Shown here: positions 26,884 through 27,339 of the stretch, piece after piece
Layout: each line of letters opens with the position of its first letter
Numbering within the stretch: position 1 is the stretch's first letter
Source: Candidatus Omnitrophota bacterium
GTDB lineage: Bacteria; Omnitrophota; Gorgyraeia; JABMRN01; RBG-13-46-9
NCBI GenBank assembly: GCA_016782495.1
Contig: JADHYL010000001.1
Location: 34,360 to 98,359, forward strand
Direction: 5' to 3'
DNA length: 64,000 bases
The notes under the pieces: generated by a model
Told to the model about the DNA's origin: nothing
What the model saw: the letters and a program-made list of their open reading frames with translations, nothing else
The model's database searches: none
Program-made: the position numbers and the translations under genes

Positions 26884-27339
26884 TTATTTTTGCTTTTTGC
26901 CATAGAGCTTATCGAGGGCGTTATTGATGTCGGTCATTGTGCTGACAAAAATCTGAACATTGCAGTTGGTTAAAAGCTCGATGTCTTCTACGGCTTTCAT
27001 GTTGAGGGGATTGGACATGGCGATCGTAAGCGTGTCTCCGATCTTATCCACGGTAATGAGGCAATACTGCCGGGCTACGTTTTCCGGTACGAGCCGAACG
27101 ACCTCTTTGGTCAATTCGTAATTTTCAAGGGGCAAATAAGGAAAACCGTACTGAACCGTCAAGGCCTGGGCTATTTCTTCTTCCTTGGTGAATCCCAAGA
27201 GAACCAGTACCTGTCCGATCAGCCCACCCTTTTCCTTCTGGACCTGGAGGGCTTTCTCAAGCTGCGCTCTTGTAATAACCCCTCTTTCTATTAAGAGCTC
27301 ACCCAGTTGTTTTTTTACCAAACGTTTGTAAGGAAGCAT
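26884..27339 (-). CDS. Standalone GspE N-terminal (MshEN-like) domain protein, 151 aa.
   Basis: KQLGELLIERGVITRAQLEKALQVQ fits the MshEN c-di-GMP-binding consensus RLGxx(L/V/I)(L/V/I)xxG(L/V/I)(L/V/I)xxxxLxxxLxxQ at all positions except the first Arg. The rest resembles the N-terminal domain of PilB (LTIAMSNPLN...). Confidence 0.7.
   Translation of the reverse strand: MLPYKRLVKKQLGELLIERGVITRAQLEKALQVQKEKGGLIGQVLVLLGFTKEEEIAQALTVQYGFPYLPLENYELTKEVVRLVPENVARQYCLITVDKIGDTLTIAMSNPLNMKAVEDIELLTNCNVQIFVSTMTDINNALDKLYGKKQK

Follow-up and report, generated by a model that had tools for sequence, protein, structure and literature searches.

Why should a pilus operon encode, as a protein of its own, a type of domain that its extension ATPases also carry at their N termini? 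The question is raised by a locus in the window, i.e., the whole 64,000-nucleotide stretch of Candidatus Omnitrophota DNA that was analysed. Here, a gene for a stand-alone MshEN domain, below called solo, lies between pilT and the first of two pilB paralogues, in the following string of genes.

28415..29845, (-) strand: membrane HAMP-GAF-GGDEF protein, 476 aa (Pfam HAMP, GAF, GGDEF), which heads the gene string
27343..28413, (-) strand: pilT retraction ATPase, 356 aa (TIGR01420, 489 bits), directly upstream of solo
27346..27350, (-) strand: Shine-Dalgarno-like AAGGA, read from the sequence, 6 nt before the solo ATG, within the 3' end of pilT
26884..27339, (-) strand: solo MshEN gene, 151 aa, a complete MshEN/GSPII domain without an ATPase domain
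25142..26881, (-) strand: pilB2, 579 aa, MshEN-T2SSE (Pfam T2SSE and MshEN), with a degenerate c-di-GMP motif
23398..25131, (-) strand: pilB1, 577 aa, second PilB paralogue (Pfam T2SSE and MshEN), with a degenerate motif
22173..23393, (-) strand: pilC platform protein, 406 aa (Pfam T2SSF, twice), position conserved
21699..22031, (-) strand: type IV pilin, 110 aa (Pfam N_methyl), position conserved

The solo gene starts 3 nt after the pilT stop and ends 2 nt before the pilB2 start. Of 69 Omnitrophota species genomes, almost all keep the order GGDEF-pilT-solo-pilB2-pilB1-pilC-pilin, with median intergenic gaps of 6-9 nt (9 nt from PilT to solo, over 58 loci). At three loci pilT is absent, and solo and pilB2 are still adjacent there.

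The solo product is one complete MshEN/GSPII domain and nothing further, as the ORF and the profile searches agree, and in this the first-pass annotation, which had described a 151-aa stand-alone MshEN protein, was correct. The sole Pfam match is PF05157 (69.5 bits at a cut-off of 23.1, residues 64-148, E = 2.5e-19), and the protein stops at residue 151. With TIGR02538, for which the cut-off is 676 bits, it scores 80 bits, and the T2SSE ATPase domain of the PilB/MshE-type extension ATPases is absent. Sequence matches in the PDB, including 5HTL, have E values from 2e-20 to 4e-44, and from these together with the PF05157 value it follows that the MshEN assignment reflects homology and not chance. 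A chance match of the motif is ruled out by E values down to 1e-44 and by the match to a curated motif HMM, described below. NCBI has an identical protein from a Ca. Omnitrophica MAG, annotated as hypothetical.

The AF2 model (pLDDT 88) has the MshEN receptor fold, i.e., a four-helix N-subdomain (helices 12-18, 24-37, 41-47 and 53-64) followed by an alpha/beta C-subdomain with strands 94-100, 103-108 and 127-132 plus helices. Its best PDB fold match in Foldseek is c-di-GMP-bound MshE, 5HTL (TM 0.79/0.85, rmsd 2.2 Å over 138 columns); the top matches also include PilF GSPII-A and -B and XpsE-N, and further fold matches are the PilB-N:PilZ complexes 7LKM/7LKO and the GspE-N1:GspL complex 4PHT.

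The ligand of MshEN domains is held by two 24-residue motifs, and their register in solo is as follows.

27238..27309, (-) strand: motif I, residues 11-34, QLGELLIERGVITRAQLEKALQVQ, aligned to MshE R9-Q32 and to NF053729 positions 1-24
27223..27237, (-) strand: 5-residue spacer KEKGG, residues 35-39, aligned to MshE KNTGR
27151..27222, (-) strand: motif II, residues 40-63, LIGQVLVLLGFTKEEEIAQALTVQ, aligned to MshE R38-Q61
26896..27150, (-) strand: C-terminal alpha/beta subdomain (MshEN_C / T2SSE_N1-like), residues 64-148, from the PF05157 match and the AF2 secondary structure

In the HMMER alignment to Vibrio cholerae MshE (PDB 5HTL), solo Q11-L12-G13...Q34 corresponds to R9-L10-G11...Q32, and L40-I41-G42...Q63 to R38-L39-G40...Q61, which gives two 24-residue motifs with a spacer of five residues. 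NF053729, the NCBIfam 'c-di-GMP_motif' model with 53 positions and a cut-off of 38 bits, is matched by solo over its full length (residues 11-63 on model positions 1-53) with 60.6 bits and E = 8.9e-17. A shift of register had been named beforehand as the finding that would undo the proposal; HMMER against 5HTL, NF053729 and the fold match all place the motif in the same register. The first-pass annotation, which described motif I only, thus had the register right but missed a second full motif, at residues 40-63 after the spacer. The strings that it quoted for solo (residues 10-34 are KQLGELLIERGVITRAQLEKALQVQ), PilB1 and PilB2 are all found in the sequences, and its ranking of solo as the best motif of the locus is borne out by NF053729, with which PilB1 and PilB2 score 44.2 and 37.8 bits, respectively.

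Which of these positions matter is known from published work on MshE and on Thermus PilF. The backbone NH groups of Gly3 and of the next residue read guanine O6/N7, and Gln24 hydrogen-bonds ribose and phosphate. In MshE, G11L leaves no detectable c-di-GMP binding and G40I makes it 72-fold weaker, while Q32A and Q61A weaken it 9-fold and 12-fold. All four polar contact positions (Gly3 and Gln24 of both motifs) are present in solo, compared with one of four in PilB2 and one of four in PilB1; over the 22 constrained positions, solo matches 20, PilB2 17 and PilB1 15 by our own count. The Leu/Ile triangles, at positions 2, 17 and 21 of each motif, are L12, L27 and L31 in motif I and I41, I56 and L60 in motif II, and Ile for Leu in a triangle costs only about 2.4-fold in PilF constructs.

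Both first-position arginines of the MshEN motifs are replaced in solo, by Q11 in motif I and by L40 in motif II. Arg to Gln had been put forward as the sole deviation from consensus; Q11 is there, but L40 replaces a second Arg, and neither change need be a flaw. The PilF GSPII-B domain, whose two motifs begin with K167 and L196, binds c-di-GMP with a Kd of 6 nM, from which the extended consensus (R/K/L)LG follows, and GSPII-C, with P335 at that position, still binds. When solo is aligned with these domains, L40 falls on L196 and Q11 on P335; L40 lies within the extended consensus, and Q11 belongs neither to the relaxed set [RKPN] nor to the extended one (R/K/L). Since GSPII-B binds with Lys and Leu at the first positions, the loss of Arg in solo need not be a defect, and a replacement may even be favourable: according to one proposal, a hydrophobic residue at the head of the motif predicts very high affinity. 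Against binding by solo counts a result with the resurrected PilF9-65 constructs, where a Ser restored at motif II position 1, in the construct that also carried Ala41, abolished the residual binding.

The N-domains of the two neighbouring ATPases differ from solo in just these respects. Their motif regions are given below.

26693..26851, (-) strand: PilB2 degenerate motif region, residues 11-63, register by BLASTP against solo
24940..25098, (-) strand: PilB1 degenerate motif region, residues 12-64, register by BLASTP against solo

BLASTP aligns solo with PilB2 and PilB1 nearly without gaps over about 140 residues at 31% identity, and because of this the registers assigned to them are sound. 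In PilB2 (residues 11-34 read RIMKAL...EIQ), Gly3 and Gly10 of motif I have become M13 and K20, and Gly3 and Gln24 of motif II have become I42 and E63. In PilB1 (residues 9-36 read LSDKLL...DIRK), motif I has L14 for Gly3, the same change as MshE G11L, K21 for Gly10 and R35 for Gln24, and motif II has S41, the retained Gly3 G43, N50 and E64. The NF053729 score of PilB2 lies just under the cut-off, and that of PilB1 lies above it for a partial alignment to model positions 4-52. Judged by their residues, both PilB N-domains carry changes where MshE mutations abolish or strongly weaken binding. The earlier statement that they have lost the Gly positions and kept the terminal Gln needs amendment: the loss of Gly holds for motif I, but motif II keeps G43 in PilB1 and G49, i.e., Gly10, in PilB2, and the terminal residue of PilB1 motif I is R35.

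The same partition between an intact solo and degenerate PilBs holds in about 68 species, in answer to a check on conservation that had been suggested for this gene. Counts for solo orthologues cover 68 Omnitrophota species; G13, Q34, G42 and Q63 are each invariant in 68/68 of them and L40 is present in 65/68. All four contact positions are kept together in 68/68 solo, 0/64 PilB2 and 0/56 PilB1 orthologues. Gly at motif I position 3 is found in none of the PilB2 (n = 64) and none of the PilB1 (n = 56) orthologues, and Gln at motif II position 24 in none of the PilB2 orthologues. Across the solo family the first motif residues are Q/T/K in motif I and Leu in motif II, the triangle positions have L/I/V/F substitutions only, bar one Gln at position 31, and spacer G39 is invariant both in a 59-sequence alignment and in 120/120 of the closest database homologues.

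Since conservation is high throughout solo, it is only moderately telling that the contact residues are invariant: 18 of its 151 columns are invariant, all four contact positions among them (hypergeometric p = 1.5e-4). Over 51 loci, the mean identity to the window proteins is 65.8% for solo, 49.6% for PilB2-N and 45.2% for PilB1-N; solo lies above both PilB N-domains in 51/51 loci and level with the ATPase cores (65-68%), which indicates that it is under purifying selection as strong as that on the cores. Its N-subdomain is 44-46% identical to those of MshE and PilF-B and 30-33% identical to the neighbouring PilB N-domains. As a separate ORF of 145-157 aa, with conserved N-terminus and stop, solo is met again in 68 genomes at species level, and hundreds of metagenomic clusters contain it too. 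Outside Omnitrophota, the genome scan gave three matches (L070-L072), all of them domains fused to PilB, with 32-34% identity, and the three short relatives that have a source name (43-56% identity) are all from Omnitrophota, while many further short matches carry no taxonomy.

To see what solo may do, consider its natural variants. In a metagenomic relative, P0129, a solo-type MshEN (50% identity, motifs intact) is fused ahead of a PilB2-type protein (49% identity) whose own motif is degenerate, and genes of PilB1 type and then PilC follow. In duplicated-subdomain variants from Omnitrophota, (MshEN_N)2-MshEN_C with 210-221 aa, Gly3 and Gln24 are kept in all four motifs, and other Omnitrophota proteins combine a solo-like MshEN with canonical PilZ domains in one chain. 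The literature that was searched gave no instance of an MshEN standing alone in a pilus operon or in Omnitrophota; Wang et al. 2016 include PA3740 and cce_1044 in their table of architectures, but no plain MshEN-only protein.

The supply of ligand is a further question. The GGDEF protein of the operon has a degenerate active-site motif here, RFDKDLF in place of RxGGDEF; orthologues from deeper clades carry GGDEF, SGDEF or AGDEF, and those from the clade of the window have degenerate forms. A Pfam scan found neither a PilZ nor an EAL domain in the seven operon proteins, a regex motif screen of 59 ORFs found no other c-di-GMP enzyme or PilZ in the 64-kb window, and an Rfam gathering scan gave 0 riboswitch matches there. 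The sole flag of the motif screen, an HD-GYP-type pattern in a 320-aa ORF at 7248-8210, is spurious. The intact GGDEF/SGDEF motifs of the deeper clades and the MshEN-PilZ fusions indicate that c-di-GMP signalling exists in the phylum.

On balance, these comparisons favour the view that solo is a split-off c-di-GMP receptor that acts on the pilus motor. In Omnitrophota, sensing of the second messenger for the PilB motors would then probably be done by a separate protein, which is probably dedicated to their type IVa pilus motor. Its four-helix N-subdomain would bind one c-di-GMP. The predicted contacts are the backbone NH of G13/E14 and G42/Q43, the Q34 and Q63 side chains and the two Leu/Ile triangles; the guanines, which arginines cap in MshE, would be capped by Q11 and L40, much as by K167 and L196 in PilF GSPII-B. 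With the ligand bound, solo would dock on the motor, where PilB2 is its most probable partner, and the alpha/beta C-subdomain of solo would take the part of the missing sensing GSPII module of a split tandem-MshEN PilB. Once docked, solo would license or tune pilus extension. Action in trans on PilB is suggested by two things, the conservation of the operon and the one natural fusion. The upstream HAMP-GAF-GGDEF protein may be the ancestral local source of c-di-GMP; as its catalytic motif has decayed in this clade, the ligand would here come from elsewhere in the cell. The first-pass annotation had spoken of c-di-GMP sensing being outsourced to a small trans-acting protein. What stands of this is a separate intact MshEN beside degenerate PilBs, and the arrangement is better described as a tandem-MshEN PilB that has been split, as the P0129 fusion, with its same gene order, suggests.

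The alternative that deserves most weight, although it is unlikely, is that solo is a GSPII module with a structural role and no ligand; as a 'landing pad' or adaptor, it would connect the motor ATPases with the PilM/PilC platform or with further partners and sense no c-di-GMP, as has been proposed for PilF GSPII-A. That domain has a near-consensus motif and yet does not bind, even when its consensus is fully restored, owing to helix and inter-subdomain effects that are hard to judge from sequence; the motif is, accordingly, an imperfect predictor of c-di-GMP binding. Both motif arginines are missing from solo, and the GSPII C-subdomain is a known docking module, as in 7LKM/7LKO and 4PHT. But Gly3 and Gln24 are dispensable for the fold, as their variation in the PilB1 and PilB2 N-domains demonstrates, and are nevertheless kept in 68/68 solo proteins; the duplicated-subdomain variants retain all four motifs, and the NF053729 score of solo is well over the cut-off. 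Moreover, the Ncap box of GSPII-A is absent in solo, which has R6 at Ncap (no S/T/D) and K9 at N3 (no E/Q/D), and the modelled helix alpha1 begins at L12 and is not extended, with residues 1-8 of low confidence or disordered, although such a model cannot prove access to the pocket. It is improbable that solo is instead a c-di-GMP-controlled decoy or inhibitor, which competes with the PilB N-domains for PilM/PilC or caps PilT. Such a protein would not activate PilB2 but would switch the machine from extension to retraction or back. Its gene does lie exactly between those of the retraction ATPase and the two extension ATPases, and the C-subdomain fold and the roughly 31% identity that it has in common with the PilB N-domains mean that it could take the same docking site; the fusion to a PilB2-type ATPase, however, argues for cooperation in cis and not for competition, and the loci without pilT retain solo next to pilB2.

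That solo binds another nucleotide, e.g., 3'3'-cGAMP or another cyclic dinucleotide, with the Arg replacements as a sign of altered specificity, is very improbable. MshEN binds cGAMP weakly, the first motif residues differ from those of MshE throughout the family, and the operon GGDEF protein is degenerate in this clade; against this, the residues through whose backbone guanine is read, Gly3 and the next one, are fully conserved in solo, and Leu at motif II position 1 occurs in a c-di-GMP binder of nanomolar affinity. There is, finally, hardly any chance that solo is an artefact of annotation or assembly, i.e., a 5' fragment of pilB broken off by a frameshift or a premature stop. It does lie directly upstream of pilB2, and a fused version exists elsewhere, but PilB2 has its own complete N-domain and start, solo has its own Shine-Dalgarno-like site, and the split is kept in 68 species and in the metagenomic clusters, by which a broken pilB is effectively refuted.

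If solo is a receptor for c-di-GMP, its existence as a natural, separate 17-kDa protein offers a clean experimental handle on a relay that, according to a 2024 review, is still unresolved, namely that from c-di-GMP binding in the flexible N-terminal GSPII domain to the PilB motor. The cognate motors would hold only non-sensing GSPII modules, and the sensor could be titrated, mutated and used in pull-downs apart from the ATPase. Solo would also be an independent comparative case for the first-position Arg being dispensable in the MshEN motif. Omnitrophota are an uncultured, ultra-small and probably host-associated phylum, and solo suggests a specific and testable regulatory input for their type IV pili.

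Among known systems, V. cholerae MshEN (5HTL) shares with solo the two-subdomain fold, the motif register, the 5-residue spacer, Gly3, Gln24 and the Leu triangles, and its N-subdomain is 44% identical. It is fused to the T2SSE ATPase, whereas solo is free-standing, and its R9 and R38 correspond to Q11 and L40; D108 of its C-subdomain probably corresponds to N110, by the constant offset of the alignment. The GSPII-B domain of Thermus thermophilus PilF (8PDK/8PKZ; N-subdomain 46% identical) binds without Arg and has L196 where solo has L40, but it belongs to a tandem of three GSPII domains within a single ATPase polypeptide, has a motif II with one residue fewer, and carries Lys at motif I position 1, where solo has Gln.

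Pseudomonas aeruginosa PA3740 (MshEN-xT2SSE_N1), which Wang et al. 2016 treat as an experimentally supported c-di-GMP binder, and Cyanothece cce_1044 ((MshEN_N)2) are, like solo, of MshEN type without an enzymatic output domain, and cce_1044 shares a duplicated N-subdomain with the 210-221-aa Omnitrophota variants. The C-subdomain is highly divergent in PA3740, absent from cce_1044 and canonical in solo, and the place of solo between pilT and pilB is fixed, whereas the table of Wang et al. puts neither of the other two in a pilus-motor operon. The FimX-PilZ-PilB system of Xanthomonas and Pseudomonas follows the same logic: the degenerate MshEN of PilB cannot sense c-di-GMP, and separate proteins, which dock on the N-domain of PilB, do the sensing in its stead. 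[quoted passage not shown]

A related arrangement is that of the tandem-MshEN PilBs, (MshEN)2-3-T2SSE (e.g., Thermus PilF, Cthe_1107, P0129), in which binding and non-binding GSPII modules precede one ATPase. The first of these modules is the product of a gene of its own in the window, as it is in 68 Omnitrophota species, from which it follows that stoichiometry and choice of partner are no longer fixed. One may speculate, though this is doubtful, that the GSPII sensor has here become a diffusible subunit shared by PilB1, PilB2 and PilT, a 'gear selector' whose ligand state would pick the ATPase at the platform, with the HAMP-GAF-GGDEF protein as the local source of the signal or, where its catalytic motif has degenerated, as a scaffold. 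Such a sensor would differ from the fixed, cis-acting one of all characterised PilB, MshE and PilF motors.

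The gene for the free-standing MshEN protein of 151 residues, called solo below, is embedded in a tight string of genes that all have the same direction:

28415-29845 (-), gene for a HAMP-GAF-GGDEF protein, first of the co-directional string
27343-28413 (-), pilT, directly before solo
26884..27339 (-), solo MshEN gene, an open reading frame of 151 aa with N-terminus MLPYKRLVKKQLGELLIERGVITRAQLEKALQVQKEKGGLIGQVLVLLGFTKEEEIAQALTVQYGFPYLPLENYE
25142-26881 (-), pilB2, directly after solo
23398-25131 (-), pilB1, after pilB2
22173-23393 (-), pilC, after pilB1
21699-22031 (-), pilin gene, after pilC

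Only 3 nt separate the stop codon of pilT from the ATG of solo, which has an AAGGA box 6 nt on its 5' side, and 2 nt separate the stop codon of solo from the ATG of pilB2. A Candidatus Omnitrophica MAG encodes a 100% identical protein, recorded in the database as hypothetical. By inspection of the sequence, Walker A, Walker B/GEIRD, His-box and Cys4 are intact in both PilB paralogues, and the tandem pilB1/pilB2 pair is kept across the phylum. On either side of the pilus and mreB-rodA region, at 19584-21620 and 35175-36965 (-), lie genes for two paralogous large membrane proteins with a common N-terminus (…LGGDFVWDD… and …LDGDFVWDD…) and C-terminal halves that look TPR-like by eye. In the window, and also in several relatives such as loci L004 and L005, the 19584-21620 gene follows the pilin gene immediately; at other loci it has only weak (25-35%) matches near the operon. 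An Rfam gathering scan of both strands of the whole 64-kb window gives no family, no tRNA and no riboswitch; the stretch is otherwise dense in cell-wall, cell-division and pilus genes.

The domain identity, register and fold of solo are established by several alignments. Its sole Pfam match is PF05157 (MshEN; 69.5 bits, residues 64-148), a model that spans the C-subdomain of MshEN. Its top match among PDB sequences is Thermus PilF (3.9e-44), to all three GSPII domains, and further matches are Geobacter PilB (about 1e-27), Myxococcus PilB (3e-24) and 5HTL, the N-domain structure of V. cholerae MshE (2e-20). The HMMER alignment to 5HTL puts Q11-L12-G13...Q34 of solo on R9-L10-G11...Q32 of MshE, KEKGG on the MshE spacer KNTGR, and L40-I41-G42...Q63 on R38-L39-G40...Q61. 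Positions 1-53 of NF053729, the curated NCBI model of the c-di-GMP motif (53 positions, cut-off 38 bits), fall on solo residues 11-63. In the AlphaFold2 model (pLDDT 88, pTM 0.75) helices 12-18, 24-37, 41-47 and 53-64 are followed by an alpha/beta subdomain, and the closest PDB fold is c-di-GMP-bound MshE 5HTL (E 2.6e-12, TM 0.79/0.85, rmsd 2.2 A, 138 columns), with the PilF GSPII domains, the Xanthomonas PilB-N:PilZ complex and XpsE-N ranked next. The HMM and structural alignments give the same register, which is also the one assigned in the first-pass annotation.

In BLASTP, solo aligns at 31% identity with the N-terminal ~146-151 residues of both paralogues, without gaps for PilB2 and with two short gaps for PilB1, and from these alignments the motif registers of both are fixed.

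Residues at the constrained positions of the two 24-residue c-di-GMP motifs (motif I, solo residues 11-34; motif II, solo residues 40-63)
solo: motif I Q-L-G / L-I / G-V-I / L / L / Q; motif II L-I-G / L-V / G-F-T / I / L / Q
PilB2: motif I R-I-M / L-C / K-L-L / I / L / Q; motif II K-L-I / L-V / G-V-V / L / L / E
PilB1: motif I K-L-L / L-K / K-L-I / L / L / R; motif II S-L-G / L-I / N-I-I / L / L / E

The earlier claim that solo has the best motif in the locus is borne out both by this comparison and by the NF053729 scores, which are 60.6 bits for solo, 44.2 for PilB1 and 37.8 for PilB2. The PilB alignments to the model begin only at positions 4 and 6, from which follows that the RLG head is gone from both paralogues. 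The first-pass annotation described motif I correctly but overlooked motif II, and where it had only the first Arg replaced, solo has lost both (Q11 and L40). The Gly loss that it reported for the PilB N-domains is partial, since motif II retains Gly3 in PilB1 and Gly10 in PilB2, and the terminal Gln that it took to be kept is Arg in motif I of PilB1. In both paralogues, Glu replaces the Gln61-equivalent.

In MshE, the side chain of the first Arg stacks on guanine, the backbone NH groups of Gly3 and the next residue are hydrogen-bonded to guanine O6/N7, two Leu triangles lie beneath the bases, and ribose and phosphate are hydrogen-bonded by Gln24 (PMC5013675). According to ITC, binding to MshE becomes undetectable with G11L, 72-fold weaker with G40I, 9-fold weaker with Q32A, 12-fold weaker with Q61A, and 10- to 38-fold weaker with single Leu-to-Ala changes. 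At the G11 position PilB1 has exactly a G-to-L change and PilB2 a change to Met; at the G40 position, Gly is replaced by Ile in PilB2. PilF GSPII-B binds c-di-GMP with a Kd of 6 nM and has K167 and L196 in the two Arg places, and Pro at a first position does not prevent binding by GSPII-C; the consensus has been widened to (R/K/L)LG..., and a hydrophobic first residue has been proposed to predict very high affinity (PMC11731258, 2024). In sequence alignments, solo L40 falls on PilF L196 and solo Q11 on PilF P335. In a truncated resurrected PilF construct, Ser at position 1 of motif II together with Ala at position 3 abolishes binding (PMC12002112).

A protein search gives 3729 solo homologues, the best 120 of which are almost all 146-157 aa long and 70-87% identical, with all named entries among these 120 from Omnitrophota. 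The gene is conserved in relatives: a scan in which each GTDB species was represented by a single genome gave 72 loci; 69 of them have the Omnitrophota-type operon, in nearly all cases in the order (PBP2-RodA)-GGDEF-pilT-solo-pilB2-pilB1-pilC-pilin(s). The median gaps are 9 nt for pilT-solo, 6 nt for solo-pilB2 and 3.5 nt for pilB2-pilB1, and in the 3/69 loci where pilT is absent at its usual position, solo and pilB2 remain adjacent. The Gly3/Gln24/Gly3/Gln24 pattern is present in 68/68 solo, 0/64 PilB2 and 0/56 PilB1 orthologues, and position 3 of motif I is never Gly in the orthologues of either PilB paralogue. Only 18 of the 151 columns are invariant in the solo family, and these include all four contact positions (hypergeometric p = 1.5e-4). 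Position 1 varies in motif I (Q36/T15/K9/R4/L3/H1); in motif II it is Leu in 65/68 orthologues and Arg in none. The PilB N-domains, with the same fold and from the same genomes, are an internal control: they tolerate many residues at the contact positions, whereas solo tolerates none, and this contrast is what selection for ligand binding would predict. Over 51 complete loci, the mean identity to the window is 65.8% for solo, 65.1% and 68.2% for the PilB ATPase cores, and 49.6% and 45.2% for the PilB N-domains, with solo above the latter in 51/51. The N-subdomain of solo is 44% identical to MshE, 46% to PilF-B and 43% to Geobacter PilB, and 30-33% to its own PilB neighbours.

Some operon-bearing MAGs (58-79% identity) carry the labels 'uncultured Planctomycetia' (L006, L007, L023, L031 and other loci) or 'Eisenbacteria' (L053), which are probably wrong. 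One Omnitrophota MAG has a second, divergent solo-like ORF between pilB1 and pilC (L067 10712-11161, 149 aa, 45% identity). In each of the MAGs STD1_50 (L012 and L043) and nzgw286 (L051 and L058), pilT-solo-pilB2-pilB1 occurs on two separate contigs, so that either the genome has the operon twice or the bin is a mixture of strains.

The membrane HAMP-GAF-GGDEF protein upstream is a conserved operon member (L001-L069). Its orthologues in deeper Omnitrophota clades have the active-site motif GGDEF, SGDEF or AGDEF, while in the clade of the window the motif is degenerate (RFDKDLF here; DKDTF, DRDTF or SGDTF in relatives), and inspection by eye shows no RxxD inhibitory site in the protein of the window. 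Cyclase activity thus seems to have been lost in one clade, which suggests an ancestral local module of cyclase, sensor and motor, where the cyclase decayed in this lineage. Among the 59 ORFs of the 64-kb window, a motif screen gives no other GGDEF, EAL, HD-GYP or PilZ candidate.

Eight of the 120 closest homologues (P0067, P0071, P0077, P0080, P0081, P0092, P0104 and P0119) are 210-221 aa long and carry the four-helix subdomain twice, as (MshEN_N)2-MshEN_C; all four motifs retain Gly3 and Gln24. An exhaustive representative search (22,476 matches at E up to 1e-3) gives a natural fusion, P0129, of 765 aa (L073 8001-10298). Its residues 4-149 are 50% identical to solo, with RTG...Q and RLG...Q intact, and the whole length of PilB2 matches its residues 193-761 at 49% identity, with a degenerate N-domain (RVI..., SLL...G) in the fusion protein; a PilB1-type gene and then pilC follow on the contig. 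By this fusion, solo and PilB2 are equivalent to a split tandem-MshEN PilB, and tandem MshEN ATPases are known from Clostridia and Deinococcus-Thermus. The Rosetta-stone argument makes PilB2 the most likely partner of solo. In four proteins (P0161, P0167, P0198 and P0239, with P0198 and P0239 annotated as Omnitrophota) a solo-like MshEN is fused to a canonical PilZ domain, like the Xanthomonas PilB-N:PilZ complex in one chain; the MshEN domains in these PilZ fusions are 42-48% identical to solo. RxxxR and D/NxSxxG are present in the two PilZ parts checked (P0161 and P0198), which shows that c-di-GMP signalling exists in the phylum. The Gly3 position of MshEN motif II is Ser or Thr in these two, and some MshEN-PilZ proteins have long coiled-coil N-termini or DUF7305. 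P0158, a JGI metagenome protein of 454 aa, joins a solo-like MshEN (50% identity, PLG...Q and LCG...Q) to a DnaA-type AAA+ ATPase domain, a hint that a DnaA-like protein may receive c-di-GMP as input.

In the proposed mechanism, the N-subdomain of solo would bind one c-di-GMP in the way that MshEN does, Q11 and L40 would cap the guanines, and the C-subdomain would dock on the motor, most likely on PilB2. Solo would in this way provide the sensing GSPII module absent from PilB1 and PilB2, and pilus extension would come under c-di-GMP control. That solo binds c-di-GMP is probable, and we lean, with some reserve, towards the whole chain from binding through docking to control of extension.

[quoted passage not shown] In the solo family, the Ncap and N3 positions hold Arg and Lys (R6, K9), so that there is no capping box, and the modelled alpha1 begins at L12, after a disordered N-terminus. 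Both features are reassuring but prove nothing about binding. Among the rival readings, a ligand-free adaptor like PilF GSPII-A appears unlikely. That solo serves under c-di-GMP control as a decoy, or as a switch between PilT and PilB, is more doubtful still, another nucleotide as ligand is very improbable, and an artefact is hardly conceivable.

MshEN is well known as a modular c-di-GMP receptor. An operon-fixed solo MshEN next to PilBs with degenerate motifs was not found described in the searchable literature. PA3740 and cce_1044 were known before as small MshEN-only proteins, and FimX-PilZ-PilB as a system in which separate proteins take over the sensing; what is new is a free-standing, canonical MshEN that is fixed in an operon throughout a phylum, together with two PilB paralogues with degenerate motifs.
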